NCBI GenBank assembly: GCA_041615815.1
Contig: JBFJCP010000012.1
Coordinates: forward strand, 1 to 64,000
Direction of reading: 5' to 3'
DNA from: Gemmatimonadales bacterium
GTDB lineage: Bacteria > Gemmatimonadota > Gemmatimonadetes > Gemmatimonadales > GWC2-71-9
Length of the DNA: 64,000 nucleotides
Shown: positions 5,110 to 27,324 of the stretch, piece after piece
Layout of the letters: each line of letters opens with the position of its first letter
Position numbering within the stretch: position 1 is the first letter of the stretch
Position numbers and translations under genes: made by a program
The notes under the pieces: generated by a model
What the model was told of the DNA's origin: nothing
The model's input: the letters and a program-made list of their open reading frames with translations, nothing else
Database searches by the model: none

Positions 5110-5231
5110 AGCGTCGCCGCGCCGTACCCCTCGCCAGTGGGAGTCTCGCCGAAGAGACGGACAGCACCCATCTCCCTAGCGGCGCGGCTGGCACGGTATA
5201 GCTTAAGCGGCATCCAGTTTCTGGCTCACGC

Positions 5232-6494: not shown

Positions 6495-6515
6495 CGCCGC
6501 TCTCGGGTCCGTTCC

Positions 6516-8099
6516 CTATCGCAGCTCACCCACCTCGACAGGGACCGTCCCCGTCACCGGTGCGACCCGCGCGGCGATCTCCTGAATCACGAGGGACCGG
6601 CCACCAGCACCATTCACTCGCACGGAACTGTTACTGAAGAGGGGATAGTACCCAATCACCGCATCTTGGATGCCCGGAGGCAAGCGACAGGCACAATCCT
6701 GTTCCGCCACGAGTCCGGCATTGACCGTGATCGACACCGCCATATCCGAACCGTTACTGACGAGCGGGGCAAAGAACGCGCGACCGCCGGCCCGGTGCGT
6801 TGCGACACGCCGCACCGTTCCACGAGATCGTTCCACGACGAATGCTCCCTGCAACTCGACCCCCATGGGAACGCCCCCCGGGGTCTCGGGACGAAGGGCT
6901 GACCATGGCGCCGTCACGGCCTGTCGGCGGGGGATTCGGATTCGGAGCTCCGATCCTGGAGGTATCGAGTGTTCGGTCTGGCCAATGGTGATGCGAATGG
7001 GGACCACGAGCGCGTTCTCGACGAGCAGCGTCGAGGGACGCAGCAGAAGAAACCCGGCCGCGCCGGCTCCAAAGAGGACAACCGCGGCAACGGCCAGTGA
7101 CCGTCTCCACGCTCCGGAGCGCGTGGGTTGATGCTCTGGCTGCGGTCGATCCGCCGCCGAAGGGGTTGCAATGGGTGTCGTTGCTTGCACCTCGAGGCGG
7201 CGGGCCACGTCGGCGGCACTCACGGCCTGCGCCATGCCCGAATCCGGGCCGGAGACGAGCGCGTCCATGACCGCCGCCGCCGATTCGTATCGATCCGAGG
7301 GACGCTTGGCCAGACAGCGTACAATGACGTCTGACAACCAACGCGGGAGTTCGGCGTTCCGGGCTACCGGGACCGGTGGCGGCTCGGACAGGTGTTTTGC
7401 GACGATTTCCTGAGACGTGTCACCCTCGAACGGCGGTGTCCCCGTGACCATCTGAAAGAGCATCGCGCCCAGCGAATACAGGTCTGAACGCGCATCCAGA
7501 TCCGCCTGTCCCAAGGCCTGTTCCGGGCTCATGTAATGCGGGGTGCCGACCACAAAGCCCGTCTGTGTCAGCCCGCCCTCGGCGTCGACGCGTTTGACGA
7601 TCCCAAAATCCATCAGCAGCACGCGACCGGTCTGCTCGTCGAGCATAACGTTGTCGGGCTTGATGTCGCGGTGGAGGAATCCGTGCCGATGCGCGTGTTC
7701 CAACGCCTCGAGGACGGGGCGGATGATGCCCAACGCACGGTCGGGCTGGAGGGCACCCTGCGAACGGATGACGTCACCGAGCGTGCGCCCCTCGACGTAC
7801 GGCATCACGTAGTAGAGCAGCCCCTCCGCTTCGCCAACGAAATGAATGGGTAGAATGTTCTGGTGCGTGAGCTTCGCCACGGCGCGCGCTTCCTCGCGGA
7901 ACCGCGCCAGCATCCCGGCACTCCAGGCAACGTCCGGCCGCAAGACTTTGACCGCAAGCCGCCGGTCCAAGGTGCGGTCCCAGACTTCGTACACCTCGGC
8001 GAATCCGCCGCGACCCAGCAGGCGACGTACCTCGTACTGCGGCCCGAGCGCGGTGGTGAGGCGTGCCGGAATGTCGCTCGACGACGAGTCGTTTGTGAT
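6516..8099 (-). CDS. Hanks-type Ser/Thr protein kinase with one TM helix and C-terminal extracytoplasmic domain (start uncertain)
   Basis: GRGGFAEV, AVK, HRDIKPDN, DFG, GTPHYMSPEQ; hydrophobic segment SLAVAAVVLFGAGAAGFLLL. Confidence 0.9.
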   Translation of the reverse strand: MTNDSSSSDIPARLTTALGPQYEVRRLLGRGGFAEVYEVWDRTLDRRLAVKVLRPDVAWSAGMLARFREEARAVAKLTHQNILPIHFVGEAEGLLYYVMPYVEGRTLGDVIRSQGALQPDRALGIIRPVLEALEHAHRHGFLHRDIKPDNVMLDEQTGRVLLMDFGIVKRVDAEGGLTQTGFVVGTPHYMSPEQALGQADLDARSDLYSLGAMLFQMVTGTPPFEGDTSQEIVAKHLSEPPPVPVARNAELPRWLSDVIVRCLAKRPSDRYESAAAVMDALVSGPDSGMAQAVSAADVARRLEVQATTPIATPSAADRPQPEHQPTRSGAWRRSLAVAAVVLFGAGAAGFLLLRPSTLLVENALVVPIRITIGQTEHSIPPGSELRIRIPRRQAVTAPWSALRPETPGGVPMGVELQGAFVVERSRGTVRRVATHRAGGRAFFAPLVSNGSDMAVSITVNAGLVAEQDCACRLPPGIQDAVIGYYPLFSNSSVRVNGAGGRSLVIQEIAARVAPVTGTVPVEVGELR

Positions 8100-8154
8100 G
8101 GCGGACGCTCCCGGTTGACGGACGGAGCAGGCCACTGAATATACCATCGGACCC

Positions 8155-8649
8155 ATGACGATCCGACGAGTTGCCCTGACCACTTCCGTGTTGTGCGCGC
8201 TCACCGCCCTCGGGTGTCGGGACGAGCCCTCGCCGACACTCGAGATGGCCGGCATCACGATTACGGACGCTTACGCACCCGCTCAGCCGACCCGAGACGT
8301 GGGGGCGCTCTATTTCACCATCACGAACGCGAACACGGAAAGCGATACGTTGAAAAGGGTCACCACCGACGTCGCCGCCCGCGCCGAGATCCACCGCCTG
8401 GCCATGGTCGAGCGGCGGATTCAAATGACGCCGGTGGGCCGGATCGTGCTCCACCCCGGCGGTACCGTACGGCTCAAACCCGGTTCCAGCCACGTCATGC
8501 TCTTCGGCCTCGGTCGGCAGCTCACGGAGGGCGATTCGGTCCATGTGACGGCCGTGTTTTCGGGGGCGGGACCGGTCCGGTTTCCAGCCCTCGTCCTGCC
8601 CTACGCCGAGGTGGCGAGACGGCTCCAGGATCCCGACCCGTCGCGATGA
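8155..8649 (+). CDS. Copper chaperone PCu(A)C, probable lipoprotein
   Basis: H...M...HxM pattern (EIH ... QM ... SHVML), GALYFTITN, lipobox-like ALGC. Confidence 0.88.
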   Translation: MTIRRVALTTSVLCALTALGCRDEPSPTLEMAGITITDAYAPAQPTRDVGALYFTITNANTESDTLKRVTTDVAARAEIHRLAMVERRIQMTPVGRIVLHPGGTVRLKPGSSHVMLFGLGRQLTEGDSVHVTAVFSGAGPVRFPALVLPYAEVARRLQDPDPSR

Positions 8650-8712
8650 GCGGCTCGAAACTCTACCGCGCCGCGCCGCGTACGGTGGGGTAACCATGAG
8701 AAGGAGTAGGCC

Positions 8713-9051
8713 ATGTCGACGCATGTGACCCAACGCGGCAGCATCCCCGCAGCGATGGGCTGGATGGTGGGACTTTCCATGTTGCTGTTCTGGGCGCCCC
8801 TGGTCGGTGGCTTGATCGCCGGTTTCGTGGGTGGCCGCAAGGCTGGCACTGCGGGACGTGGGATCGCCGCCGCCCTGCTCCCCGGGTTTCTCTTGTTCGT
8901 CGTCACGTTCTTCTTTGGCGGAATCCTCGGCGCCATCCCGATCCTCGGTCAGCTCTTCGGCTTGGTCGCGGGCCTCGGGGCGGTGGCGTTATCCACCATG
9001 CATGTGATCCCATTGTTGCTTGGTGCGGTGATCGGTGGAGCGACCGCGTAG
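8713..9051 (+). CDS. Small glycine-rich membrane protein, unknown function
   Basis: AAGGAG RBS; several hydrophobic helices with GxxxG (GGLIAGFVGG). Confidence 0.75.
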   Translation: MSTHVTQRGSIPAAMGWMVGLSMLLFWAPLVGGLIAGFVGGRKAGTAGRGIAAALLPGFLLFVVTFFFGGILGAIPILGQLFGLVAGLGAVALSTMHVIPLLLGAVIGGATA

Positions 9052-9053
9052 GG

Positions 9054-10037
9054 TCATTCGCCTTGGTCGTTGAGGATGATGCGAAGTTCCGCGGAGTCGA
9101 TGTTTCCGCCGGAAATGACGACCACCACATGCGCCGGTACGCGGATCTTTCCCGCGAGGACCGCCGCGAGCGCCGCGGCGCCGGACGCCTCGGCCAGCAG
9201 CTGATCGCAGTCGATGAGCGTGGCAATGGCCGCCTTGAGCTCTTGCTCGCTCACCAAGACAATGTCGTCGACGAGTTCCTGCAGAATCGGGAACGGCACT
9301 CGCCCGAACCCGCCGGCAAGCCCATCCGCCAGAGTCGGCTCATGATCAAAGGGATCGAGCGCGCGCCCCTGCTGGAGCGAGAGCAGTGCTGAGGGGGACG
9401 CAACCGGGTTCACGCCAACGATCCTGGCATCCGGGTAGGTCTCGGCGACCGCCACGGCAATACCGCCGATTAGCGCCCCACCCCCCACGGGGACCACCAC
9501 GGCCTCGACTTCCCGGGTCTGCTCCACAATCTCCAGACCACACGTCCCCTGGCCAGCGATCACGGCTGGATCGTCGTACGCTGAGACAAAAACGGCACCC
9601 GTATCATGGGCGTGCGCGAGCGCCGCTTGCTGTGCATCCTCGAAAGTGTCTCCCACCAGATGCACCCGCACGCGGTAGGCCTCCAACTTGCTGAGCTTCG
9701 CCCGCGCCGCATTTCGCTGAACGAAGATATCCACGTTGTCCACACCGATGGCCTGACAAGCGAAGGCCACACCGAGCGCGTGATTCCCGGCTGATGCCGC
9801 CACGATCCCGCCGGCGCGCTCGTCCTCATCGAGCAGCATGAGCTTGTTGAGGGCGCCCCGCGGCTTGAAGCTCCCTGTTCGTTGCCGATTCTCCTGCTTG
9901 AGCCACACCGCGCTTCCCACTCGACGGGAGAGCGCGAGCGAATGGGTGAGCGGTGTGCGACGAATGTGCGGCCCAATCCGCACCGCAGCAGCGCGGATAT
10001 CGGCAATGGTAACAGGGAGCGAGGTCACAGTTCCCAT
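9054..10037 (-). CDS. PLP-dependent threonine/serine dehydratase family (no ACT domain)
   Basis: QRTGSFKPRG (PLP Lys), SAGNHA, VPVGGGAL, ISGGN. Confidence 0.9.
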   Translation of the reverse strand: MGTVTSLPVTIADIRAAAVRIGPHIRRTPLTHSLALSRRVGSAVWLKQENRQRTGSFKPRGALNKLMLLDEDERAGGIVAASAGNHALGVAFACQAIGVDNVDIFVQRNAARAKLSKLEAYRVRVHLVGDTFEDAQQAALAHAHDTGAVFVSAYDDPAVIAGQGTCGLEIVEQTREVEAVVVPVGGGALIGGIAVAVAETYPDARIVGVNPVASPSALLSLQQGRALDPFDHEPTLADGLAGGFGRVPFPILQELVDDIVLVSEQELKAAIATLIDCDQLLAEASGAAALAAVLAGKIRVPAHVVVVISGGNIDSAELRIILNDQGE

Positions 10038-13508: not shown

Positions 13509-16301
13509 TCACGGCGCGGTCTTGTGGAGAGTCTCCCGCACCCGTGTCAAGAGCTCGGTGACGGTCCACGGCTTGTGCAGGAAGGCAAGGTCGGGCTCGA
13601 GCTCCCCGCTGGCTTCCAGGTCGCGCGCCGTGTAGCCGCTCGTGAACAGGAACGGCAGACCGCGACTGGTGCCTCCCGCAAGCTCCCACAGACGGCGCCC
13701 ACCCACGCGCGGCATGATGAGATCGGCAACGACCAGATCGATGGCCGCGTCCTCCTGCTGCAAGAACGCTAGCGCTTCCGCCCCATCCTTCACAGGGACC
13801 ACCCGGTAACCCCAGCGCTCGAGAATGCGGTGCGCTGATCGGCGGATGGCCTCATCGTCCTCGGCCAAGAGTATCCGTTCTCCTTCCCCTCTGAGAAAAT
13901 CGGCCGTCGACGGTCGAGTGGCGCTTTGCACCGTCTGCTCGGCGAGGGGAAAATAGACCCGCATGGTGGTTCCATTGTGCTGTTCGCTGTAAACGCTGAT
14001 GAAACCCTCGTGCTGCTTCACCAGGCCGTAGACCATCGCCATGCCTAGGCCGGTTCCCTGCTCCGCTGGCTTCGTCGTAAAGAACGGTTCGAAAATCCGA
14101 CGCCTGGTTTGCTCGTCCATCCCCATCCCGGTATCACTCACGATCACACAAGCGTACGACCCGGGTTTGCCCCACCCATGCATGGCACGGAAGCTCTGAT
14201 CCACCCATGCCCGGCGGACTTCGATGCGGAGGATGCCCCCCGCCGGCATCGCATCGCGCGCGTTCGTAGCCAGATTCATGAGGATTTGTTCGACGGCGCC
14301 CCGGTCCGCCCGCACGACATCCGTATCTTCGGCGATGAACTGGAGCTGAATGTGCTCAGGGAGCAGCCGCTCGAGCATGTGGGTCATATCCCTGCACAGT
14401 TGTGCGAGATCGAGCATTTCGATGACGAGGCGCTCTCGTCGGCTGAACGCCATCAGCTTCTTGATCATCTGCGCGCCGCGGCGCGCCGCGATTCGGATCT
14501 CATCCACGTCTTTTCGCAGATCTCCCTGCCCGGGATCGAGCTCCGCGGCAATCAGTTCCGCGTTGGACAGAACCGCCGTAAGGATGTTGTTGAAATCGTG
14601 CGCGATGCCTCCGGTGAGCTGTCCCACCGCCTCCATCTTCTGCGCCTGTCGCAGCTGCGCTTCCAGAATGCGTTGTCCCGTGACATCCTCGACGATCATC
14701 TCGAAGCATTCGAGCGCTCCGCGATCGTCGAACACCGGGCGCCCGCTGAGCCGCACGGTGATCAGGTCACTGTCTCGCCGTTTCCATTGCACTTCAACGC
14801 CAGATACCACGCCCGACGTGCGGTACTCCTCGATCAGACGCTCCCGCTCGCCCGGATCCACGTAGAGATCAGTGGTCATATCGAGCTGCAGGAGTTCTTC
14901 TTCGGAGTCATACCCGAGGATTTCGGCCAACGCCGGATTCACGGATAGGAACTTGCCACCAGGACTCGATCGGTAGATGCCGTAGATGGCGTGTTCCACG
15001 AGTGAGCGATACTCGCGCTCGGACCGCTGCAAGGCATCCTGGATGGACTTGAGCTGCGTCACGTCTTGGGCGTGTCCCAACACGTAACGGCCTCCTTGCG
15101 CGCTCTCGCACAGCACGTTGCGATACGACCAAACGCGCTCTTGTCCCGTCTTGGTAACGACCCGCATCAGTCCGCTCGCAATCCCCTCCGCGCGGATTCG
15201 CTCGAGGTAGGCATCCAGCTCCTCGTGCGTGTCGGGTGCCAACAAGTCCCGGAGATGCCGACCGTGGTAATCGCCGGGCGCGTACCCGAGCGCCCGCATG
15301 GCAGCCGGATTGACCGTCAGGAAGTTCCCGTCCAGGTCATGCGTGCAGATAATGCCGAGGCTGTTCTCGACGAGATATCGATAGCGGCGCTCGCTCTCCT
15401 TGAGGATCTCCTCCGCCCGCTGATGCTCGAGCTCGGCGGCCGCGCGGGAAGCGAAGATTTCGAGTGCGGACCGGGCCACGAGCTCGTTGCGCAGAGGCCT
15501 GCGATCGAGAATCACCAGGATCCCCAAGACCGATCCCGACGCGCCCACCAACGGCGTGCCCAGGTAACTCTCGACCTCCATCTCCGCCAGCACACGATCG
15601 TCGGGGAAGAGCCGGTGCACGTCACGAGGATAACAGCACGTGCTCTGCCGTAGCACGTCCTGACAGGGACTGCCATACAAGTCGTATTCGAAGTTCTCGA
15701 CCAGCTTCCCATCGGATACGACCGCGATAGTGCGGATGGTATCGGCCGCTTCGACGGTTTCGCCCACCAGGACATGCGCGACGTCGAGCAGCTCCGCCAG
15801 ATGGCGCACCATCTCGCCAAAGAAATCGCTCGCGGTGGCAAGCGAAAGATGGGCGGTGAGCTGGCGCAGGACCTCTTCGTTCCGCTTGCGTTCGGAGAGA
15901 TCTCGGACGAACCACAAGTACTTCACCGCGCCATCGTAGTCCGTTTCGTGAATCGAGACCTCGACCGGGACTTCAAGACCGTCGCGATGGCGAGCGGTGG
16001 CCTCGAAGCGGCGCGTGGGGTGCGCACCCTCTTCGTCCGCCGGCGCTTCGCCGCTGACGGGTGGGGGCGAGGCAAGAACCTCCGCAACGGGCCGCCCCAC
16101 CACCTCGTCCCGACTCCATCCCAAGAGTGTAACCGCGCGGTTGTTCCACTCGGTGACGAGGCCCGCATCGTCGGTGGCGAGCACGGGGTCAAACGCGGCC
16201 TCGAGCACCGCCCGGAGACCTCGAAACGTTTCGTTCTCACCGGCTGAAGCCGGCGTCCCCTGAACCGATTCGCCAGTGGCCGGGCGCCGCTTACGAAGCA
16301 C
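13509..16301 (-). CDS. Hybrid sensor kinase PAS-GAF-PAS-PAS-HisKA-HATPase-REC
   Basis: GGIAHDFNN, NLATNARDA, GTGLG, C-terminal REC (LAEDD, DLIMP, KP); GGAG RBS before GTG. Confidence 0.93.
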   Translation of the reverse strand: MLRKRRPATGESVQGTPASAGENETFRGLRAVLEAAFDPVLATDDAGLVTEWNNRAVTLLGWSRDEVVGRPVAEVLASPPPVSGEAPADEEGAHPTRRFEATARHRDGLEVPVEVSIHETDYDGAVKYLWFVRDLSERKRNEEVLRQLTAHLSLATASDFFGEMVRHLAELLDVAHVLVGETVEAADTIRTIAVVSDGKLVENFEYDLYGSPCQDVLRQSTCCYPRDVHRLFPDDRVLAEMEVESYLGTPLVGASGSVLGILVILDRRPLRNELVARSALEIFASRAAAELEHQRAEEILKESERRYRYLVENSLGIICTHDLDGNFLTVNPAAMRALGYAPGDYHGRHLRDLLAPDTHEELDAYLERIRAEGIASGLMRVVTKTGQERVWSYRNVLCESAQGGRYVLGHAQDVTQLKSIQDALQRSEREYRSLVEHAIYGIYRSSPGGKFLSVNPALAEILGYDSEEELLQLDMTTDLYVDPGERERLIEEYRTSGVVSGVEVQWKRRDSDLITVRLSGRPVFDDRGALECFEMIVEDVTGQRILEAQLRQAQKMEAVGQLTGGIAHDFNNILTAVLSNAELIAAELDPGQGDLRKDVDEIRIAARRGAQMIKKLMAFSRRERLVIEMLDLAQLCRDMTHMLERLLPEHIQLQFIAEDTDVVRADRGAVEQILMNLATNARDAMPAGGILRIEVRRAWVDQSFRAMHGWGKPGSYACVIVSDTGMGMDEQTRRRIFEPFFTTKPAEQGTGLGMAMVYGLVKQHEGFISVYSEQHNGTTMRVYFPLAEQTVQSATRPSTADFLRGEGERILLAEDDEAIRRSAHRILERWGYRVVPVKDGAEALAFLQQEDAAIDLVVADLIMPRVGGRRLWELAGGTSRGLPFLFTSGYTARDLEASGELEPDLAFLHKPWTVTELLTRVRETLHKTAP

Positions 16302-16687: not shown

Positions 16688-17623
16688 CTAGCTGTCCCTT
16701 CCCCGCTCGACCCCGGAGGATCGCCGGCTGCGAAACTCGAGAACGCGCTGGGCCAGGACGGACATCACGTCTACGGCCATATCGAAGTGATCCTCCAAGA
16801 TGTCGATAAATGGCTCGACGTCGATCCGAAGCGCCACGCCTTCGGTCTCGGGCACGGCATCGAACCAGCGCCGTTCACCACGGAGCGCCTCGTGCATCCC
16901 CACCGCCGCCGCCGGACCCAGCCGGAACGATGCACCCTCGTCGGTGTCACCGCGGATGAGTCCGCGGGCAATCAGCATGAAGTGATCGGCCGGATCGTTT
17001 CGGCGCCACCAGGCCTCCGTCGGCTGAAGAGACACTTCCGCGACGTGATGCGCCAGCTCGTTGAGGGCGTCGAGCGTGGTGGTGGAAAACGCGCGGGAGC
17101 GACTCAGGACCTCGAGACGCTCTACGAGGTTGAGCGCCTTCGCGTCCGGACGAATGAGATCCGCTGCAGCCGCATTCACGTCGAAGGGCGCCGCACGAAA
17201 CTCGACCAGAAAGCGACCGGAGAGGTACCGCAGATACTGCAGAAGGATTCCGAAGTGCTCTTCGCACACATCGAGCTGCGCATCCCAATCGAGCTCGAGC
17301 GCGAGTGTGTCCACATCCGCCCGTACATCGATGCCCTGAGGGGACCGCGCCAGTAATTCCAGAAAGCCCACCGCCTCGCCACCGCCGACGACCCGGGTCC
17401 GCCCACCCGCCCAGGACACCGTGACTTGACCATCGACGATCACGAACACGGCGTCGGCCGGTTGGTCGGGCCGCAGCATGGCGGTTCCGCGTGGAACGAA
17501 TTGCTCACGCGCGTGCTGCGCCACGGCTGCGAGTTGCGAGGACGCGAGGCCGTCCAGGGCCGGGAGCGTTCGGAGAAACAGCACCCGATCGAGCGGGCCG
17601 ACGAACAACACTTTTTCAGCCAT
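16688..17623 (-). CDS. Tandem cyclic-nucleotide-binding (CRP-fold) domain protein, no HTH
   Basis: Two repeats: LRTLPAL...DQPADAVFVIVDGQV and LSRSRAF...NDPADHFMLIARGLI; start overlaps end of upstream NTT gene. Confidence 0.82.
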   Translation of the reverse strand: MAEKVLFVGPLDRVLFLRTLPALDGLASSQLAAVAQHAREQFVPRGTAMLRPDQPADAVFVIVDGQVTVSWAGGRTRVVGGGEAVGFLELLARSPQGIDVRADVDTLALELDWDAQLDVCEEHFGILLQYLRYLSGRFLVEFRAAPFDVNAAAADLIRPDAKALNLVERLEVLSRSRAFSTTTLDALNELAHHVAEVSLQPTEAWWRRNDPADHFMLIARGLIRGDTDEGASFRLGPAAAVGMHEALRGERRWFDAVPETEGVALRIDVEPFIDILEDHFDMAVDVMSVLAQRVLEFRSRRSSGVERGRDS

Positions 17624-20396
17624 AGTGCCGCTCCGGTGCACCACCCCCGACCAGGCGACGAGCCACGTCTTCCAGGACCACTCGGTGATGCGACGACAGC
17701 ACCGGGATCCCGCGCAGGAACCTTTCGAGTCTTGCAAGACCCAGTTCGCCGATATGATGCGCGGCGAGGGAACTCAGGGACTCGGTACCGCTCGCCAACA
17801 GCTCCTTCAACACGACCTCGTACGGTAGGGGCTGTACCTCACGATCGTTCGTTTCCGAAGGGCCGACCGCTTCGAAGAGATCATCGAGTAGGACGAGAAA
17901 GCGCCGCCGGAGCGGAGGAAGCACCAAGTTTTCCGCCAGTTCGCGGCTGCCGGCACGCGCCTCACGCTTGAGACTGTGCAGCCCTCGATAGATGCGCAAG
18001 AAATCCTCGTCGCTGGCCTGCAGATTCAACAACCGAAACAGGCGTTCCAGGGTGTGGTGTTGCTTGTCCCGCAAAAGCCCCGCGAGCAGTTCGTAGCCGG
18101 AGGTCCGGCGATCCGTGTCTTCGCGCACGCCCGCCGCCAAGGCATGACGCCACCGCATGAACCGAAAGCCCGCTTCGAGGTTCTGTTCGACGGCCTGACC
18201 GATGAGCTTGGGGTCGAGCACGAGACTCGGGTTTTCGGACCGCAGTCGTCCCAGCGCGCGAAGCATCTTGAAGCGGATCATGCCGTCGCCTTCGGCCAAC
18301 AGCCGGCGCAGCAGAATCTGCGCGGCCTGCGGGGTGCCGAAGGCTCCGATGGTCTGCGGGAGATGACGCCGGACCGCGTGGGAAAGGCGCTCGTCACCCA
18401 TGGCGGCCGCCAGGCGCGGAAGCGTTCCCGGTCCCAAGCCTACCAAGGTTCGGCGCACATCATCCCTCACGGCCCGATCGCCGAGCAGGGCGATGAGCGG
18501 CGCCACGAAGCTCGGGCTCTTGATCTCCCGGACGGCACGGACCGCTTCCGCCCGCACCCTGGCGTCCGGGGACGACAAGAGGCGGAGCAACGAGCTCTCG
18601 AACTCCGTACCGGGCAAGACCCGGATCGTAACCGCGAGAGCGAGCTGCGCCTCCGACGAGCCATCGCTCACGAGGTCGTTCAGGGCCTGCTGCGCCTGAG
18701 CCCCCGACAGCCAGCCCCCACCAATCAAGCCCACGAGCGCGGTGGCTCGAACCGACGGCGCGGGATCCTCCGTGCCGCGCCGCAGCAGCGCCTCGTCCGC
18801 TTCCACCACCGTTCGGACGCGCAGAGCGGCAGCCCGGACTCCCGCGCTGGCGTGGTCCAACAGGCGATCCACGATGGGCCAGTAATCGTCCCTCCCCGAG
18901 CGGACGAAGAGGTCCAGGGCGTGGATGACGACGCTTGGTGAGGGATGGTAGAGGATCAGAGCGGGAATCACGCGCGTCTTGTCTTGCACTGCCAGGAGAT
19001 CCAGAGCCGCCATCACCTTACGGTCATCGGAATCATTCAACGTGGCCAACAACGTTTCGAGGGACGCCACGTCGAGCGCCGGGAACTCGATGCGTGTTTG
19101 CGTGATCTCATCGCTCAGGGTCTCCCGAAACACGTCCAGGTAGTGTCGGCGGAGATCGAGCACGAGGACCAGCCAGGTGGCGGCGGCGACGGACGCGAGC
19201 GCGGCAAAGACGGTCTCGCGTGTGGTGAGGCTCAGCAGGATGAGGATCAGCAGCGAGGCGAGCGCTTGGCCACCGCGCTGACCGATCACGTCAATGAATG
19301 CCTTGACCCGGCCCCGGATCTCTGCAGACATCGGAACGAACAGGAGCTCCGTGGCGGTCCGATACAGCGAGTATCGTGTGCTCCCGTCGGCACCCTTGAA
19401 CAGCAGGACGGCCACAAGTCCGCCGCTCGCCACGAAACCCACGCCACCGGCAAGCAGCAGCACGGGGACGATGGCCTGTGCGGCGTTCACGCCCAACCGA
19501 CGAATGAGCCACCCTACGAACACCACCTGAATGACGAGCGAGACCAGGTTGAGCGACAAGTAGACACTCGAGAAGAATTCGCCCATCGCCTCGTCCGCCA
19601 CGAACCGGGCTGCGGTGCTCTTGAAGACGAAGTCCACCATCGTAAAGGTGATCGTCGACAGCAACACAACGATTGCCACCCGCCGCAGATAGGGACGACC
19701 CCAAATCAGCCGCCCCACCCGGTTCAGATCGAGCTGCTCCCGCCGGCCCGTCGCGATGGCTGGACCGCCACCCTCCAGCAGGGTGGGCCCCGCTGCGCTG
19801 AGGAGAAACACGAGTCCAGCAGCCAGGACGACGTGCTGGGCGGCCAGCACGCTCGTCAGGATGCGTGCCAAGCCCGATCCCAAGATCGCGCCCAACACGC
19901 TGCCCGACCCGATGACGGCGAACAGGCGTTTCGCTTGCGTGACGGTGAAGCGGTTTCCCAGCACCGTCCAAAAACGCACCACCACCAGCGTGGCCAGAAC
20001 GCCGGACCATGCATACAACGTGTAAAAGACCCAGTTCTGGGCGAGGTAGGCGAGCGCCCAGAACCCCACCGTCACGGCGCCCGAGAACATGAGCCAAGCA
20101 CTCAGCTCGTTCCTGGCACCAAACCGGCTGAGCAATCGAGGCTGCTGACGTGCCAACGCGAGCGCGACGGCGGCGATGGTCAGGTATACCCACGGAAGCA
20201 ACGACGCCGGGAGTCTGGCGAGGAACAAGGCATCCCGAGCGGTCTCCAGCAGCGCGTGTCCGGTCATGAACCCGAACAGCGTCAAGAAAGCGCCCAGCGT
20301 ATCCCGTCGCTCGTCGTTTCTGATTGCCCCCAACGCTCCAAGCACGCGCATCGACAACGCGTACATGGGGTGTGGTCCAGGAACACGGTTACTCAT
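17616..20396 (-). CDS. TLC/NTT (Npt1/Npt2-like) nucleotide transporter fused to HEAT repeats
   Basis: ETARDALFL, QAKRLFAVIGSG, DFVFK, KGADGSTRYSL...ELLFVP...RVKAFID in the TM region; HEAT-like repeats (VRAAAL, VRATAL, VRAEAV) after it. Confidence 0.85.
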   Translation of the reverse strand: MSNRVPGPHPMYALSMRVLGALGAIRNDERRDTLGAFLTLFGFMTGHALLETARDALFLARLPASLLPWVYLTIAAVALALARQQPRLLSRFGARNELSAWLMFSGAVTVGFWALAYLAQNWVFYTLYAWSGVLATLVVVRFWTVLGNRFTVTQAKRLFAVIGSGSVLGAILGSGLARILTSVLAAQHVVLAAGLVFLLSAAGPTLLEGGGPAIATGRREQLDLNRVGRLIWGRPYLRRVAIVVLLSTITFTMVDFVFKSTAARFVADEAMGEFFSSVYLSLNLVSLVIQVVFVGWLIRRLGVNAAQAIVPVLLLAGGVGFVASGGLVAVLLFKGADGSTRYSLYRTATELLFVPMSAEIRGRVKAFIDVIGQRGGQALASLLILILLSLTTRETVFAALASVAAATWLVLVLDLRRHYLDVFRETLSDEITQTRIEFPALDVASLETLLATLNDSDDRKVMAALDLLAVQDKTRVIPALILYHPSPSVVIHALDLFVRSGRDDYWPIVDRLLDHASAGVRAAALRVRTVVEADEALLRRGTEDPAPSVRATALVGLIGGGWLSGAQAQQALNDLVSDGSSEAQLALAVTIRVLPGTEFESSLLRLLSSPDARVRAEAVRAVREIKSPSFVAPLIALLGDRAVRDDVRRTLVGLGPGTLPRLAAAMGDERLSHAVRRHLPQTIGAFGTPQAAQILLRRLLAEGDGMIRFKMLRALGRLRSENPSLVLDPKLIGQAVEQNLEAGFRFMRWRHALAAGVREDTDRRTSGYELLAGLLRDKQHHTLERLFRLLNLQASDEDFLRIYRGLHSLKREARAGSRELAENLVLPPLRRRFLVLLDDLFEAVGPSETNDREVQPLPYEVVLKELLASGTESLSSLAAHHIGELGLARLERFLRGIPVLSSHHRVVLEDVARRLVGGGAPERHYG

Positions 20397-20566
20397 CCGG
20401 CCGTCCTCGCCGATGAGCGCGTTGGCTGGGCCCCGGGGGCACGAGAAGAGCACTCATGGGTAGTACGCCAATATAGACGCCCCCGGCCGTGTGGTGTGAC
20501 ACCGACTCCGCTCGCACAGCTCAATACATTATCTTCCACGCTACCCCAACGATTGAAACCCTCAAG

Positions 20567-23527
20567 ATGATTGCCTACGTGGATTGCCGAATGTTCGGAG
20601 TCGTCGCGCTGTTGGTCGGCTCGACTACGCAGGGTCTCGGTGCCCAGAGTTTCCCACCGCCCCTGACCAACGACCAGGCCCATGAAGTGCAACGCGCCAT
20701 CACCGCCATGAAGGAGGACCCGCGCGGTCCCTATCTTCGCATCCGCTGGTTCTGCAATGACGGAACGATTCAACCGCCCCAAGGGGCTGCGTGTCGCGAG
20801 CGCGGCGGTGGCGTCCAGCACGCCGAGCTGAACGATCGGGCCAAACGCCTTGCCCAGCTCGACGTACACGTCGGGACCATTCTCCAGGCGACTCCCTTCG
20901 ACGCGTTGTTTGACCGCGAGCGAGATCATTACCGGCTTAAAGAGCTGGTGGTTGCCGAGTATTTGTTCGAGATCGACGGCGGGTGGGCGCTCAAGCAGGC
21001 TCGGTTCTATCGGGGCGCCAAGCAGATCGAGGATGAGGAAGCCCGTGGACAGGAGTACCTGCAGCGGATGCTAGCGGACACGAGCTGGACACGGCGGAAT
21101 TTCCTTCTGACATCCCAGCTGGTGAGGACGATCCCCCACCCGCGCATCGGGGACGAGCAATCCACCCACCGGATTCGCAATCTCGCCACGGAAATCGCCA
21201 CGCTCGATCCGGGATTTCTGAACCTCCGGATCAAGATCCACTCGTTCCCGTCTCGGGACGATCTGGACGCCGTGACGTCCTACCTGACATCCAAGAACCA
21301 CGGCGACGAGGTGCGGAGCAAGCTCGCCGAGCTCACGGACGAGTTACGGCAACAATACGATGCCAAGCGGAATGTGGAGGAGTTGGCGCGGTACGAGCGC
21401 CGGCTGCGGCGTGTCGTGGGACCGCAGCTCCAAGCGCTTCAGCAGAGCTACCAAAACGAATCGAGTCGCCGCACGCTCCAGCGCACGGCGCTCCTCGCGG
21501 CGGAGGTCAGACAGCGTGTGAGCGCCAGCGCCGATGGTCGCACCAACCTGGTCCTGCTGGACTTGTTGGCGACCCTACAGGAGCAGGCCTTTCTCCTCGC
21601 GCAGGAGCTGGAAGCGGATACCGCGACGGCCATTCCGCGGCACGATCGCTTGACCCGGCTGTCCGACTATTTCGCGCTTGCCTTCTCCGGTGGCTTCCTC
21701 TCGTCCCGAGAACGCCAGGCATTGGACGAGGAGATCGCGCGTCTGCGGGGAATGCCAAAGCTCACGGCCGGCGCGTACAAGGACGGCCTGAATTACCTCG
21801 GACGGAGTCTCGATTGGGCCGCCGCCACCGTCAGGAGCGTTTTTGCACCCACGCAGCAGCGGTACCTGGCCTTCGAACCCAAAGCCGTTGGATTCCTCGA
21901 CGCCGTCGTGCGAGGATCGTCGCTGCTTCCGCAGTCGGTGCAGTTGGCCTACCTCGGGGCCGACGCGGACCGAGTCCTCGGGGCATCCCATCGCGTCTTC
22001 GGGCGCGATATCAGTCAGGGGATACGGGGACTGAACCCGGGGTTTGCCATGCAGCGTCTCGAGATCGTGGACCCGCGCATCACCGATTGGCATCTCGAGC
22101 CCACCACCATCTACGTGTTGCCGGAAACGACCGCCGAGATCAGACCACCGGCGGGCGTACTCACCCTCGATGCCGGCAATCTCTTGTCGCATGTCCAGCT
22201 GCTCGCGCGCAACCTGGGCATCCCGAATAGCACGATGTCCTCCGCCCTGCTCCCCATGGTCCAACCGTATCACGGCCGCGAAGTGTTCTATGCAGTGTCC
22301 CCGATGGGGAGGGTCGTGCTGCAAGACCCGGCTCGGCTGGGCGATGTCGAACGTCGGATCGTCGAGCTGGGTCGTCAGGCGCCGCCCGCCAAAGTGCAAC
22401 TCAACACGAGCCGGCTCCGGCTGGACCGTACCCAGCCAATCCCCCTGCGGGAGCTTCGCGCGGACCAGTCTGGCGTGTTTGTGGGCCCCAAGGCCGCGAA
22501 TCTCGGGCAATTGGCGTTCTACTTTCCCGATCACGTTTCCCGAGGCGTCGCCCTGCCCTTCGGGATGTTTTACCAGCACGCCAACCGCCCCTTCGGCTCC
22601 CAGCAATCGGTGCTCCAGGAATTGGCCAATGCCTACCGAGAGGCGGCACGGATGCGTGCGCGCGGAAGGGCCGAGACCGAGATCGACGAGTACATGTTTG
22701 GCGTCCTCGCTCGCGTGCGCACCGCGATCCTCGAGCTGCCTTGGCTCCCGGAGGTACGGGGTGCCATCGTCGATGCGCTCCGGACCACGTTCAACGACGA
22801 CGTGTCGGGCGGTGTGTTCATCCGCAGCGACACCAACGTGGAGGACCTTCCGCAGTTTTCGGGTGCGGGCCTCAACCTCACGGTTCCCCATCAACGCACC
22901 GTGGAGGACATCCTCACATCCATCAAACGCGTGTGGACCTCACCCTTCAGCGAACGGGCCTACCTCTGGCGCAAACAGATTCTCGAGGAGCAGGGACAGA
23001 TCTACCCGTCGGTGCTCTTGCTCGAGAGTGTGCCCTCCGACAAGTCAGGTGTGTTGATCACCTCGGGGCTCCAGTTTGGCAGCCGAGACGATCTGACCAT
23101 CGCCACCGCCGAGGGAGTGGGCGGAGCGGTGGAAGGCGAGGACGCGGAAACGGTCGTGGTCGATGCTCAGTCGGGTGCCGTGACCTTGCTCTCCCAGGCA
23201 AAGGCCCCATTTCGGCGGATCCTGGTCACGACTGGAGCCGGCGGCGGGCGTATGGTAGCGGCGCGGCGACCCGACGAGCTCCTCCGACCCTCGGACGTCC
23301 GGCAACTCGAGGAAGTGGTGGCGAGCTGGAAGCGCCGGCTCACGGGCGACGACCGCGGGCAGGTCTGGGATATCGAGTTCGGATTCACAGGAGACAAGCT
23401 CTGGCTGTTTCAGATCCGACCCTTTGTGCGGTTCCGCAGCAGCGAGCTCATCGAGCGACTGAACGTGCTCGATCTCGACACACGCCGACGCGGATCGCGA
23501 TCCATCTCCCTGCAGGAGGCGGTATGA
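20567..23527 (+). CDS. Putatively exported PEP-utilising (PPDK/PEP-synthase superfamily) dikinase: N-terminal unknown domain, phospho-His swivel domain, ATP-grasp domain
   Basis: His domain GVLTLDAGNLLSHVQLLARNLGIP (His codon 22190); ATP-grasp VGPKAANLG, IRSDTNVED...GAG, DIEFGF...FQIRP; signal-like N-terminus GVVALLVGSTTQGLGA-Q; alternative start 20591. Confidence 0.85.
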   Translation: MIAYVDCRMFGVVALLVGSTTQGLGAQSFPPPLTNDQAHEVQRAITAMKEDPRGPYLRIRWFCNDGTIQPPQGAACRERGGGVQHAELNDRAKRLAQLDVHVGTILQATPFDALFDRERDHYRLKELVVAEYLFEIDGGWALKQARFYRGAKQIEDEEARGQEYLQRMLADTSWTRRNFLLTSQLVRTIPHPRIGDEQSTHRIRNLATEIATLDPGFLNLRIKIHSFPSRDDLDAVTSYLTSKNHGDEVRSKLAELTDELRQQYDAKRNVEELARYERRLRRVVGPQLQALQQSYQNESSRRTLQRTALLAAEVRQRVSASADGRTNLVLLDLLATLQEQAFLLAQELEADTATAIPRHDRLTRLSDYFALAFSGGFLSSRERQALDEEIARLRGMPKLTAGAYKDGLNYLGRSLDWAAATVRSVFAPTQQRYLAFEPKAVGFLDAVVRGSSLLPQSVQLAYLGADADRVLGASHRVFGRDISQGIRGLNPGFAMQRLEIVDPRITDWHLEPTTIYVLPETTAEIRPPAGVLTLDAGNLLSHVQLLARNLGIPNSTMSSALLPMVQPYHGREVFYAVSPMGRVVLQDPARLGDVERRIVELGRQAPPAKVQLNTSRLRLDRTQPIPLRELRADQSGVFVGPKAANLGQLAFYFPDHVSRGVALPFGMFYQHANRPFGSQQSVLQELANAYREAARMRARGRAETEIDEYMFGVLARVRTAILELPWLPEVRGAIVDALRTTFNDDVSGGVFIRSDTNVEDLPQFSGAGLNLTVPHQRTVEDILTSIKRVWTSPFSERAYLWRKQILEEQGQIYPSVLLLESVPSDKSGVLITSGLQFGSRDDLTIATAEGVGGAVEGEDAETVVVDAQSGAVTLLSQAKAPFRRILVTTGAGGGRMVAARRPDELLRPSDVRQLEEVVASWKRRLTGDDRGQVWDIEFGFTGDKLWLFQIRPFVRFRSSELIERLNVLDLDTRRRGSRSISLQEAV

Positions 23528-24834
23528 GACCCCTCGTCCGCCGAACCTGTATGCTCGTTGCCGGTGCGTCCGCGCTCGTCGGCGCGACGTGGGTGGCCGA
23601 CTATCCGCTGGACGGCGCCGAAGAAACCGGGATTCGCCGGCTCCGAGCCTACCGCATGATCCAAGACGGGGCGATGCCAGGAAACATCCGGCTCCAGCCC
23701 GGCGCTGGGCTCCCGTCGTCAGCGATTCGGCTGCGCCTCGCTGGCGTGAACGACACGTTCGACATTCGGCCAGGCACCCCGAAAGACCCCGAGCTCCAGG
23801 CGGCACTCGAGCGTATCGTAGGATCGCGGCATCCATCCTACCGCGTGGCCATCTTAGACATCACCGATCCGTCGCGGCCCCGCTACGCGGCGATCCGTGA
23901 GAACCAGGGATACATCCCGGGGAGCGTGGGCAAGATCCTGGTCATGACCGGGCTCTTCAACGAGCTCAAGAAGCTCTATCCCACCGATCACGCCGCTCGC
24001 GCGAACCTCTTGCGGAGCACAAACGTGGTGGCCGACGAATTCGTCGTCCCCAACAGCCATGCCGTCCCAGTGGTGGCCGCGGATTGGCGTTCGGTGACCC
24101 ACCGGAGAGTCTTCGTGGGGGACGAGTTCAGCCTCTGGGAGTGGGTGGACCACATGATCTCCCCGAGTTCCAATGCAGCCGGGTCGATGGTCTGGAAGCA
24201 CGCCCTCTTGCTGAACGAGTTCGGCCGGTCGTATCCGCCCACCAAGGACCAAGAGGCTGCGTTTCTGAAGAACACGCCGCGCCAAGAGCTCTCCCAGCGC
24301 TCCATTCAGATCGTGGAGGAACCGCTCCTCGCGCAAGGACTCGACACCGCACAGCTCCGCATCCGGACGTACTTCACGGGAGGCGCATCGCGCGTCATTC
24401 CCGGGAAGTCCAGCTTTTCGACTCCCCAGGAGCTCGTCCGGTGGTTGCTCAAGCTCGAGCAAGGCAAGTTTGTCGACCAGTGGACCAGCCTCGAGATCAA
24501 GAAGCTCCTCTACTTCACCCGGCGCCGATACCGCTACGCCGCGTCGCCCGCCCTCAACGAGGCTGCGGTTTATTTCAAGTCGGGGTCGCTGTACCGGTGC
24601 CGCCAGGAGGAGGGGTATCAGTGCGGCCAGTACCGCGGCAACGTCGAGAACCTCATGCACTCGGTGGCCATCGTGGAGTCCCCAGCCGTGCCCAAACCCG
24701 ACGAGCGCCAGCGGGTGTATCTCATCTCCATGATGTCCAACGTGTTAAAGGTGAACTCAGCGTTCGAGCACATGACCATCGGGACCGAGATCGAGCGCCA
24801 TGTGCAGCGCGTCCACGGAACCGGAACGCCCTGA
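23524..24834 (+). CDS. Exported serine hydrolase, PBP/class A beta-lactamase fold
   Basis: SxxK (GSVGK), SxN (SSN), KSG (YFKSGS); signal-like N-terminus; ATGA overlap with the dikinase stop. Confidence 0.8.
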   Translation: MRPLVRRTCMLVAGASALVGATWVADYPLDGAEETGIRRLRAYRMIQDGAMPGNIRLQPGAGLPSSAIRLRLAGVNDTFDIRPGTPKDPELQAALERIVGSRHPSYRVAILDITDPSRPRYAAIRENQGYIPGSVGKILVMTGLFNELKKLYPTDHAARANLLRSTNVVADEFVVPNSHAVPVVAADWRSVTHRRVFVGDEFSLWEWVDHMISPSSNAAGSMVWKHALLLNEFGRSYPPTKDQEAAFLKNTPRQELSQRSIQIVEEPLLAQGLDTAQLRIRTYFTGGASRVIPGKSSFSTPQELVRWLLKLEQGKFVDQWTSLEIKKLLYFTRRRYRYAASPALNEAAVYFKSGSLYRCRQEEGYQCGQYRGNVENLMHSVAIVESPAVPKPDERQRVYLISMMSNVLKVNSAFEHMTIGTEIERHVQRVHGTGTP

Positions 24835-24942
24835 GTCTGTGTGCGCCCGGACACAATACCCCTTGCATCCCCGATTAGATTTTGGGTTTCCGGCAGACCT
24901 CTGTCCGGAGGTCGTCTTACCCGAAAGGAGTGCAGACTCGGT

Positions 24943-25896
24943 ATGACTCGTGGCAGCCTACTCGGGCTGTCGGTTGTCGTCGTGGCGGCGTATGGAACGT
25001 TGCCCATGGCCCAGTCCGTCGGAGCCCAGGAAGTCCGTCCGCCAACGCTCGTGCTGCCCGCCAAGCACACGGGACTCCAGACCGAGCTCAACGCGATTCT
25101 CGTTCAGCCTCCGTTCCGGCGACTGGTGGCGCAGAAGCGCCTGTCCGTCGCGCTCGTGGATGTCTCGCAGCCGGGGGTGTTGCGGTACGCTGGCGTCGAC
25201 GATGACCACATGCGGTACGCGGCGAGCCTGCCCAAGATCGCGATCCTCCTCGCGGTGTTCGACCAGATCGAGCAGGGGAACCTCGAATACACCCCACAGC
25301 TTCGTCGAAAAATGGAGTTGATGATTCGTCGGTCCAGCAATCGCGAGTCGACGGAACTCATCAAGCTCGTGGGATTCCAAAATATCGCGAGCACGCTGCG
25401 GGACCCCCGCTATGAGCTGTACAGTCGGAGCCGCAACGGTGGCCTCTGGGTGGGACGCGACTACGGTGGGTGGATGGGCACGTGGCGGCGCGACCCGTTG
25501 CACGAGATCTCCCATGGCGCGACGGCCCGGCAGGTGGCTCGGTTTTTCGTCATGATGGACCGGGGCGAGCTCGTCAGTCCGTGGGCCTCGGCGGAGATGA
25601 AAGGCATCCTCGCCCGTCCGGAGATCAATCACAAGTTCGTGCTGGGTCTGCAGAACCGACCGACATCCAGGATCTTTCGGAAGTCCGGCACCTGGAAGAA
25701 CTGGCATGCCGATGCCGCGTTGGTGGAGCGGGACGGCAAACGCTACATCGCGGTCGCCCTGTTGGAGTCTTCGGCGGCCAAGGGTGTGCTCTCCGCCCTG
25801 ATCGTGAAGCTGGACGACCTGATCCACCGGCAACCGGCGACCCCCATCAACGCCGCGCAGTCGGCTGAGCGCATCGACATCTTCCTTCAGGATTGA
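24943..25896 (+). CDS. Exported serine hydrolase, class A beta-lactamase-like/PBP fold
   Basis: YAASLPK, RSSN, RKSGTW; signal peptide; AAGGAG upstream. Confidence 0.85.
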   Translation: MTRGSLLGLSVVVVAAYGTLPMAQSVGAQEVRPPTLVLPAKHTGLQTELNAILVQPPFRRLVAQKRLSVALVDVSQPGVLRYAGVDDDHMRYAASLPKIAILLAVFDQIEQGNLEYTPQLRRKMELMIRRSSNRESTELIKLVGFQNIASTLRDPRYELYSRSRNGGLWVGRDYGGWMGTWRRDPLHEISHGATARQVARFFVMMDRGELVSPWASAEMKGILARPEINHKFVLGLQNRPTSRIFRKSGTWKNWHADAALVERDGKRYIAVALLESSAAKGVLSALIVKLDDLIHRQPATPINAAQSAERIDIFLQD

Positions 25897-25920: not shown

Positions 25921-25964
25921 AAACAACGCCGCTGGAACCGAACATCCAGCGGCGTTGTCTTTTT
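25921..25964. terminator. Bidirectional intrinsic terminator
   Basis: ACAACGCCGCTGGA-8nt-TCCAGCGGCGTTGT 14-bp stem, CTTTTT after on +, AAA at the left end. Confidence 0.85.
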
Positions 25965-26036
25965 GGACCTACGCAACCCGGCACGATGGCCGTCGTGCGT
26001 CCAATCACTCGGCGCGTGATCGCGATTCGGTCCGGA

Positions 26037-26241: not shown

Positions 26242-27324
26242 TCATTGACGCGGCCATTCGAAGGGCGGCGGCGACGGAAGGGGAGGATCCGGTGACGGTT
26301 CCGGCGTCTCCCGCTCGGGGACACGCGTCGAGTCGCTAGAGATCATCTCGCTAGGGACCTCCGCCGTCACGGGCTCTCGCAAGCGCTCCACTTCGTTCAC
26401 GAATCGCAGCGCAAAGGTGGTTAGGTCCGCCCGGCCAATTCCCGAACTGTCGTGACGCTGGACTCGGGCGAGATTGACGGACGCCTTCTCGTACGCGTCG
26501 TCCACCTGTACGGCCGCGCGGTACGCCTCAGCTGCGTCGACATCGTGTCCCAGCCGCTCGAGCGCGATCCCCAGGTTGTTTTGAAACACCGCCACGTCGC
26601 TCCGGATCTCAGTAGCGCGGGCGAGGGGCCCCAAAGCCTCCTCGAAGCGCTCCTCGTGAATCAAGATCAATCCCAGATTGTTCATGGACCACACGTCGTG
26701 ATCGTCGAGCACGATCGCTTCCCAATACGCGTCGATGGCTTCCTCGATGAGCCCAAGCTCGTGTCGGGCCCGACCAAGAACCCGGAAGGCTTCACCCAGT
26801 GCGGGATCGATGAGCAGCGCTTCCTGCACGCGTTCCAGGGCTTCCACCGGACGATTCACCTCCAGAAAGACCCGGCTGAGGTTGAGGAGACTCTTCACGT
26901 GTTCGGGATCGATGTCCAAGGCGGAATAAAACGCCGTCTCCGCGGTCTCGTGCTGCCCCGACTTCCAGGCCGAGAGCCCGAGCATGTAATGCCCCCACAT
27001 GTTCTCGGGCCGTTGTTCCGTATAGACGGTGAACAGGTCCGTGGCCTCGGCATACTGCTTGTCCCGATAGGCGCGCTCGGCTTCTTCGAAGGTGACGGTG
27101 CGCGGTTCGACGGAAGTCGCTGGAATCGGGTCGCTCACCGACACTGGAACGGTGGGGACCGCAGTTGTCGGCGACGCCGCGTGCCCGACCGTATCGTCGA
27201 CCGCTGGGGTACCCGATTCACCGCATCCGTAACTGGCCCAGAATACGACGGCGAGCAGGGCTCCCACGGCGACGTGGCCAAGACGCTCCTTGAGCTTGTC
27301 GCTTGGCGTGCATTGCATCCGCAT
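26242..27324 (-). CDS. Exported/lipoprotein tetratricopeptide-repeat protein
   Basis: GGAGG RBS; hydrophobic segment ending YGC; repeated TPR motifs (HYMLG, LLNLS, MNNLG, QNNLG). Confidence 0.88.
   Translation of the reverse strand: MRMQCTPSDKLKERLGHVAVGALLAVVFWASYGCGESGTPAVDDTVGHAASPTTAVPTVPVSVSDPIPATSVEPRTVTFEEAERAYRDKQYAEATDLFTVYTEQRPENMWGHYMLGLSAWKSGQHETAETAFYSALDIDPEHVKSLLNLSRVFLEVNRPVEALERVQEALLIDPALGEAFRVLGRARHELGLIEEAIDAYWEAIVLDDHDVWSMNNLGLILIHEERFEEALGPLARATEIRSDVAVFQNNLGIALERLGHDVDAAEAYRAAVQVDDAYEKASVNLARVQRHDSSGIGRADLTTFALRFVNEVERLREPVTAEVPSEMISSDSTRVPERETPEPSPDPPLPSPPPFEWPRQ

Follow-up and report, generated by a model that had tools for sequence, protein, structure and literature searches.

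The bacterial periplasm is treated as free of ATP, and envelope chemistry is assumed to be driven by pre-activated precursors, by the proton motive force or by cytoplasmic ATPases. According to the main text of a survey by Major, Embley and Williams (2017, PMC5381601), the nucleotide translocases of the NTT family characterised so far are carriers that import ATP, and the job of NTTs in free-living bacteria is an open question. The same source describes a widespread, uncharacterised layout in which an NTT fused to HEAT repeats is accompanied by an adjacent or fused cyclic-nucleotide-binding domain (cNBD). Here we describe a locus in which such an NTT-HEAT gene, with its cyclic nucleotide monophosphate (cNMP)-binding-fold companion, lies back to back with genes for a predicted exported dikinase and two serine enzymes of penicillin-binding-protein (PBP) fold, SxxK1 and SxxK2. 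It is found in a stretch of 64,000 nucleotides from a Gemmatimonadales bacterium (GenBank assembly GCA_041615815.1, contig JBFJCP010000012.1, positions 1 to 64,000), hereafter the window. An earlier note, written from the letters of this DNA alone, had proposed that the NTT supplies ATP to a periplasmic dikinase. The gene set suggests, without proving it, that ATP is delivered outside the inner membrane; on balance we favour a four-part periplasmic module in which exported ATP would feed phosphorylation, most likely of peptidoglycan.

The five-gene grouping is far above chance, given its recurrence in several phyla. We analysed the best 80 of at least 573 confirmed genome loci: SxxK1 is present in 72, SxxK2 in 53 and an NTT in 36. 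Where at least 4 kb was available on each side (44 loci), the corresponding numbers are 42, 33 and 23, and a metagenome search seeded with SxxK1 found the dikinase upstream in 49 of the 53 loci having at least 1 kb of upstream sequence. Gene order varies between cassettes; among Proteobacteria and Desulfobacterota, the arrangement seen most often is dikinase, SxxK1, an inverted SxxK2 and an NTT of a single domain (about 430 aa). With the exception of the cNMP gene, these loci show no additional gene that recurs across phyla as a cassette member. The dikinase is present in the cultured species Parahaliea aestuarii, P. maris and Mariprofundus micogutta.

When whole genomes are considered, an NTT accompanies the dikinase in 29/29 dikinase genomes from three even samples, each of which includes a centre genome chosen for having the dikinase. 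The Gammaproteobacteria sample, with one genome not scored, gives 23/23 dikinase genomes with an NTT versus 31/227 others (21/21 without the centre genome and the unpublished G281), and the NTT lies within 10 kb of the dikinase in 18 of the 23. The figures are 2/2 versus 26/199 in the Desulfobacterota-centred sample, and 4/4 versus 93/197 in the window's own phylum, where the NTT count includes the unpublished G056; three further genomes of this phylum, whose matches (E 1e-11 to 1e-16) were confined to the ATP-grasp domain, were not taken to hold orthologues. Moreover, among 45 dikinase genomes in which no NTT was seen at the locus, 44 encode one at another site; in the 45th, the cassette itself holds a divergent NTT-HEAT-cNBD gene, which separates SxxK1 from the dikinase. 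Our NTT profile missed this last gene, and the background rates are therefore floors. We give counts and no p-values, since related genomes are not independent.

The carrier that accompanies the dikinase is not always the same. The NTT family profile matches the solved NTT1 carriers 9j3n (E 6e-32) and 9j3j (E 2e-26), and in a tree of 96 NTT sequences the 52 dikinase-adjacent ones are scattered over distinct groups, namely two clades of single-domain proteins, clades with HEAT repeats (that of the window, a shorter one, and one from Bacteroidota-like metagenome loci) and a HEAT-cNBD fusion. Constraining them to a single clade is rejected by the approximately unbiased (AU) test (p 5e-27; 2000 replicates, FastTree topologies). 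Some NTT is always kept while its clade changes, which argues for a functional need as opposed to passive synteny. In most cassettes the NTT consists of its single domain; besides the window, six loci have the tandem cNMP gene, each time next to the window's NTT clade only; a definition of the system by NTT-HEAT plus cNMP protein was therefore rejected. Of the association anticipated in the earlier note, between dikinase homologues and NTT-HEAT genes, the NTT part stands (29/29 genomes), whereas the HEAT fusion and the cNMP gene do not define the system. Neither does the same note's idea that the cNMP protein gates the transporter through the HEAT repeats find support, because the binding cassettes are degenerate: relative to what we take to be the canonical phosphate-binding cassette (Gly-Glu ... 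Arg-Ser/Thr), the Glu is displaced in both domains and the Arg is present in domain 2 only. We propose that the HEAT tail and the cNMP protein have a regulatory role, came along with this NTT clade and are dispensable for the core.

Two further observations concern these carriers. In L041 (16623-19124), the last ~110 residues of an NTT-HEAT fusion look STAS-like by eye. NTT genes are also frequently paired (L041, L052, L072, L073, L151-L153, L159-L161, L164, L165, L184 and L185), usually as a single-domain protein with a HEAT fusion or as two single-domain proteins of different clades; the pairs are possibly heterodimers, or a carrier plus a regulator.

Export of the right-arm proteins is predicted from their N-termini. 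A hydrophobic leader, detected with a heuristic of our own and not with SignalP, is found in 116/117 diverse dikinases versus 301/2520 internal control windows; the 117 are those of 126 dikinases that had enough sequence ahead of the conserved core, nine being too short. In a set of close dikinases the count is 103/120, many of the misses being truncated gene calls. The leaders differ in sequence and retain the form of a signal peptide. SxxK1 and SxxK2 homologues likewise carry predicted signal peptides, so that the check on the three proteins and their homologues advocated in the earlier note yields conserved leaders on all three. Sec export of the dikinase and of the SxxK pair is thus very probable, as far as leader sequences can tell. 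Cysteine pairs conserved in the dikinase N-domain (C63/C76, 97% of diverse homologues) and in SxxK1 (C359/C367, 67/67) fit with an oxidising compartment, in which that of the dikinase may form a disulfide.

By its PF01326 domain, its swivelling-type His domain and its retained catalytic residues, the enzyme is assigned to the phosphoenolpyruvate (PEP)-synthase/dikinase superfamily. Pfam reports PPDK_N at residues 639-955 (80 bits, cut-off 27) and a weak PEP-utilizers match at 519-553; the His domain family PF00391 matches 37/40 homologues, several above the cut-off. The structural model has a predicted local distance difference test (pLDDT) score of 90.6 over 986 aa. Its ATP-grasp domain best matches the rifampin phosphotransferase 5hv1 (Z 33.6, root-mean-square deviation 2.2, 310 residues), followed by HpeI 9goj (Z 25.9) and pyruvate phosphate dikinase (Z 16.9). 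In an alignment of 126 sequences (the window protein and those members of 145 new representatives that reach at least 900 aa), His542 is conserved in 99%, and K642, R753, E937, Q949 and R951 of the ATP-grasp domain in 98-100%. The C-terminal pyruvate-binding barrel is absent, with no Pfam match and a model that ends in the ATP-grasp domain; the protein is therefore not PEP synthase, and PEP synthase or pyruvate phosphate dikinase proper was also rejected on NCBIfam scores far below cut-off.

The N-terminal domain is presumed to bind the acceptor. It bears a conserved polar patch (Q84, H85, R149, Q153, E155, E157, R204, R221, H225 and D232) that looks like a substrate site. Fold searches returned generic helical bundles only (best Z 10.8 over 87 residues), a sequence search against solved structures gave no match, and the ESM Atlas gave a single 0.84 match, to a cluster that is probably the same family. 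A complex prediction for dikinase residues 27-606 with SxxK1, for which no controls were folded, scored 0.00 and carries weight neither way. In L302 and L304 (4945-8007), the dikinase match comes in three in-frame pieces with two stops between them, which may reflect a pseudogene, a sequencing error or recoding.

The two SxxK enzymes are paralogues (HHalign 99.4%). SxxK1 displays the motifs S134-x-x-K137, S215-x-N217 and K352-S-G; S134, K137, S215, N217, K352, G354, C359 and C367 are invariant in 67/67 homologues, and the protein has a conserved N-terminal extension. The SxxK2 motifs (S95-x-x-K98, S131-x-N133, K247-S-G) are invariant in 52/52. PBP-A (2j7v) is the sole match of the SxxK2 profile among solved structures (E 6.5e-6), where the SxxK1 profile has no significant match. 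Leu186 of SxxK2 lies at the Glu166 position of class A beta-lactamases (L, I, M or V in 52/52, PBP-A-aligned), which we presume to be that of the PBP-A Leu; in SxxK1, the Glu166 region shows no conserved Glu under a looser mapping. Class A beta-lactamase identity was rejected for want of a conserved omega-loop Glu166 equivalent, and for the same reason the antibiotic-inactivation module offered as an alternative in the earlier note is weakened.

PBP-A has been described as a DD-carboxypeptidase and endopeptidase (PMC11189452). A PG_binding_1 domain occurs at the C-terminal end of ten SxxK1 homologues, 4/72 in genome loci and 6/80 in metagenome loci, the four genome-locus fusions all lying within dikinase cassettes; a search for SxxK1 fusion proteins of 764-2180 aa found none, which is weak evidence. 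Through these fusions and the PBP-A likeness, peptidoglycan is the best supported of the substrates first suggested for this locus (an envelope glycan, peptidoglycan or a small molecule), the other candidates being less so. Phosphatases were seen near a few SxxK genes: a histidine phosphatase is convergent with a peptidoglycan-binding SxxK1 in L330, L360, L362 and L370, PhoD lies between SxxK1 and SxxK2 in L034, and HAD-IIIB lies between SxxK2 and the NTT in L072.

These elements can be assembled into a working scheme. The dikinase and the two SxxK enzymes would leave the cytoplasm through Sec, while the NTT would carry ATP from cytoplasm to periplasm and retrieve the nucleotide left after use, AMP in the case of a dikinase; from the genomic coupling, export of ATP and retrieval of AMP by the NTT are likely. 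The dikinase would transfer the beta-phosphate of ATP to His542 and then to an acceptor on the N-terminal domain, His542 presumably swivelling as in glucan water dikinase and rifampin phosphotransferase, to judge from fold and residues. The acceptor would be peptidoglycan or a muropeptide, trimmed or transferred by the two PBP-A-like enzymes; this is the least certain step, to which we give an even chance. Two outcomes are conceivable: a sugar hydroxyl may be stably phosphorylated, or the carboxylate of a stem peptide may be activated by conversion to an acyl phosphate, to be captured by SxxK1 and ligated to an amine. The sugar phosphate is slightly favoured over the acyl phosphate.

The most serious competitor keeps the ATP supply and the exported dikinase and changes the acceptor, which would be a glycan of the envelope (a periplasmic glucan or another) or else a small molecule, for instance a phenolic or an antibiotic; the SxxK enzymes would then act as esterases or acyltransferases. 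The enzymes of closest fold, rifampin phosphotransferase and HpeI, act on hydroxyls; in the order of its domains and in the size of the helical one, the protein matches glucan water dikinase (PMC13553574); and exported-type phosphatases within or next to a few cassettes (L034, L072, L330, L360, L362 and L370) would fit a stable phosphomonoester. However, about 100 loci reveal no recurrent carbohydrate-binding module, glucan synthesis gene or resistance context, the peptidoglycan-binding fusions and the PBP-A likeness favour the cell wall, and no conserved Glu166 equivalent was found. We consider a non-peptidoglycan acceptor unlikely.

NTTs located away from the dikinase offer another view of the family. 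We inspected 40 such regions and scanned 62 neighbours: several are predicted exported nucleotide users, and many others are unrelated. In L183, a CotH kinase of 1636 aa, which bears a signal-like leader as well as SH3 repeats (3272-8179, +), lies directly upstream of an NTT gene (8447-9736, +), the single one of the Mariprofundus micogutta genome, whose dikinase cassette is elsewhere. In both Parahaliea genomes, an exported metallophosphatase-HipA-like kinase fusion precedes two NTT genes (L184:10501-12429; L185:10754-12667). Aldo-keto reductases and an NAD-dependent epimerase-fold protein stand beside one NTT clade in L163, L167 and L168, with Tat signals in L163 and L168; this clade possibly exports NAD(P) to the periplasm. 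Two exported kinase-like families were recognised by motif only. One, of about 570 aa and with no Pfam match (L160:546-2246; L161:13263-14972; L156; L177), occurs in 18/201 own-phylum genomes, all 18 NTT-positive. In the other, a kinase-like domain is fused to an Omp85 barrel (L152:8480-11026 and, in the source genome of the window, G000:C4:40658-41701). Finally, NTT-HEAT and a small cNMP-fold gene are followed by a histidine kinase or a response regulator in L159, L180-L182 and L188, an arrangement that is possibly a nucleotide-sensing operon. NTT supply to exported nucleotide users as a general rule is suggestive, with one clear exception.

That exception, the kinase-like/Omp85 family, belongs to a set of observations that weigh against ATP export feeding peptidoglycan phosphorylation. 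Its genomes are NTT-positive in 36/69 cases, no NTT having been found in the remaining 33; the motifs are largely retained in 20 NTT-negative genomes, and a closer search of five near-complete genomes found no NTT. Periplasmic kinase-like proteins can therefore persist NTT-free, and we rejected an obligatory NTT requirement for all exported kinase-like proteins. CotH genomes, for their part, are NTT-positive in 8/10. NTT-HEAT and cNMP pairs adjoin two-component genes, and NTTs may therefore also be sensors. As to the cassette itself, just 23/44 well-flanked loci have an NTT, related genomes enter the counts, and the carriers from which we built the NTT profile are themselves dikinase-adjacent; in the own phylum, NTTs greatly outnumber the dikinase (97 versus 4 of 201 genomes). 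The PG_binding_1 fusions are few and probably represent kin and few independent events, and none of the six from metagenomes has a dikinase in the fetched locus, three of these stopping at a contig edge just upstream.

The window NTT adds to this set. It scores 49.6 with TIGR00769 (cut-off 387) and has no equivalents of K155, E245 and K527; among the four charged residues that we take to serve ATP/ADP exchange in plant NTT1, with numbering likewise assumed, E385 alone has an acidic equivalent. Three of the four being absent, we lowered the claim of an ATP/ADP translocase and rejected identity with the classical NTT1 type. An invariant Arg stands three residues ahead of the K527 position, and the residues leave room for compatibility with ATP/AMP exchange, as the dikinase would need. 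NTTs are also diverse in what they carry: in the account of Major et al. (PMC5381601), one carries NAD and another failed to carry nucleotides.

It could then be that the NTT is not an ATP exporter, but recovers AMP or other products, or senses nucleotide via HEAT and cNMP domains, ATP arriving by another route. The loss of the classical residues (in our assumed numbering), the persistence of the kinase-like/Omp85 family without NTT and the two-component neighbours all speak for it. On the other side, the NTT of most cassettes consists of the carrier domain alone and lacks any sensor part, the NTTs characterised so far are carriers in that same account (PMC5381601), and no NTT-free dikinase genome was encountered among the 29 sampled and the 45 without an NTT at the locus. 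Such a role is improbable, a little more so than a different acceptor.

Lower still we place a protein acceptor, where the dikinase would phosphorylate SxxK1 or SxxK2, for example on the active-site serine, and thereby switch a cell-wall hydrolase. The tight translational coupling, the mutual retention of the two genes (SxxK1 in 42/44 well-flanked loci, dikinase upstream in 49/53 SxxK1 loci) and the conserved N-terminal extension of SxxK1 would be in keeping with it, but the dikinase N-domain has its own conserved polar patch resembling a substrate site, and no dikinase of the PEP-synthase superfamily is known to act on proteins as a regulatory kinase. Given a high-energy donor, the dikinase reaction can run backwards, as established for pyruvate phosphate dikinase. 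Reverse operation, with a periplasmic high-energy bond charging His542, ATP made from AMP and the NTT importing it as characterised NTTs do (PMC5381601), is nevertheless highly improbable, as the ATP-grasp domain groups with the rifampin phosphotransferase/PEP synthase type (Z 33.6) and not with pyruvate phosphate dikinase (Z 16.9), and no periplasmic high-energy donor is evident.

Peptidoglycan phosphorylation fed by exported ATP thus remains our preferred reading, and Table 1 gives the features of the locus on which it is built. The organisation first read from the letters was confirmed throughout: all five genes are present, and genes, overlaps, divergent gap and terminator match the description. 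The divergent starts, put at about 170 bp apart, are separated by exactly that distance; the left arm is an NTT-HEAT gene overlapping the tandem cNMP gene, as Pfam domains and an 8-bp overlap attest; and the right arm is a dikinase, estimated at about 990 aa, coupled via ATGA to SxxK1 and followed by SxxK2 and a terminator.

Table 1. Features of the dikinase locus and its flanks (window coordinates)
Feature	Position	Strand	Description
PAS/GAF hybrid histidine kinase, flanking gene	13509..16301	-	not conserved with the module
Tandem cNMP-binding-fold gene	16688..17623	-	311 aa, no signal peptide; Pfam cNMP_binding, two stretches
NTT-HEAT carrier gene	17616..20396	-	926 aa; TLC at about residues 28-420, then HEAT repeats
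Divergent intergenic region	20397..20566	.	exactly 170 bp between ATGs
Dikinase gene	20567..23527	+	986 aa; signal peptide, helical N-domain, His domain, ATP-grasp domain
Dikinase, predicted Sec signal peptide	20567..20644	+	residues 1-26; hydrophobic-leader heuristic
Dikinase, N-terminal domain	20645..21991	+	residues 27-475, mainly helical; model pLDDT 94.6 and conservation
Dikinase, His542, predicted phospho-histidine	22190..22192	+	conservation; aligns with the PEP-synthase His motif
Dikinase, ATP-grasp domain	22424..23449	+	residues 620-961; fold match to 5hv1 and conserved residues
SxxK1 gene	23524..24834	+	436 aa; Pfam Beta-lactamase2; predicted exported class-A-like penicillin-binding-fold serine enzyme
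SxxK2 gene	24943..25896	+	317 aa; Pfam Beta-lactamase2; predicted exported SxxK1 paralogue
Intrinsic-terminator-like hairpin	25923..25966	+	14 pairs and a T-run
TPR protein, flanking gene	26242..27324	-	not conserved with the module

The NTT-HEAT protein matches Pfam TLC (E 2.6e-15; 56.7 bits, cut-off 21) and HEAT_2 (E 2.7e-15), and a simple scan finds ten hydrophobic segments. A promoter scan gave no sigma-70 match, against 1.7 expected. Each of the five genes is single-copy in the source genome (95.7% complete), where the NTT-HEAT gene is the only NTT found (one profile match); the closest named relatives are Gemmatimonadota. The flanking PAS/GAF kinase and TPR genes were rejected as module parts because they do not recur at the same position in related loci. 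A defence system was likewise rejected, since PADLOC gave cNMP-fold matches for the cNMP protein and none for the other four.

Should the proposed scheme hold, its implications would extend beyond this locus. A conserved exported dikinase always found with an NTT makes periplasmic ATP supply directly testable, and cultured carriers of the module exist (Parahaliea aestuarii, P. maris, Mariprofundus micogutta). The module offers a role for the uncharacterised NTTs of free-living bacteria and points to an unrecognised cell-wall phosphorylation or ATP-driven ligation. As a broader and doubtful extension, free-living bacteria might perform NTT-fed, ATP-driven peptidoglycan chemistry by way of an acyl phosphate or a glycan phosphate, SxxK1 making new amide bonds with no pentapeptide donor. 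In that case, the general role of NTTs would be to export the cofactors of periplasmic kinases and NAD(P) enzymes.

One of the closest known systems is alpha-glucan water dikinase. We take this enzyme (StGWD1) to work in plastids supplied by NTT1, that is, as a dikinase in an NTT-fed compartment. It shares with the window protein the order of helical, His and ATP-binding domains, and its central domain (483-926, 20 helices) resembles in size our helical domain of about 445 aa and some 20 helices (PMC13553574). This likeness is one of order and size and does not imply homology to the GWD helical domain; the GWD central-domain structures 9HA9 and 9QVI are not among the N-domain fold matches, their presence in the searched set being uncertain. 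PF22973 matched 1/40 dikinase homologues, below its cut-off. Unlike StGWD1, the window dikinase has no CBM45 (nor have 40 homologues), and it has a signal peptide, a conserved Cys pair and PBP-fold partners. Rifampin phosphotransferase (5hv1) and the phenolic phosphate synthetase HpeI (9goj) provide the closest ATP-grasp folds and share phospho-His chemistry; however, rifampin phosphotransferase is cytoplasmic and ordered ATP, rifampin-binding, His, and its substrate domain has no match in the window protein. Identity with it was rejected on this domain order and on an NCBIfam score of 59 bits (cut-off 999).

The secreted kinases CotH and Fam20C also perform ATP-dependent phosphorylation outside the cytoplasm, and CotH lies upstream of an NTT in L183, but they are gamma-phosphate kinases of unrelated fold. 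PBP-A of Thermosynechococcus elongatus (2j7v) resembles the SxxK pair in its SxxK, SxN and KxG motifs, in Leu for Glu166 and in being exported; it is distant (SxxK2 E 6.5e-6), and the window enzymes differ in being dikinase-coupled and, for SxxK1, in large inserts and a Cys pair. The left arm corresponds to the NTT-HEAT architecture with an adjacent or fused cNBD of Major, Embley and Williams (2017, PMC5381601), the cNBD gene lying a few bases away, whereas the main text of that survey gives no function and no link to exported enzymes, and the window cNBD is tandem, separate and degenerate. Each part of the module falls in a known superfamily; our search of the open-access literature found no description of an exported dikinase, nor of its coupling to an NTT and PBP-fold enzymes.

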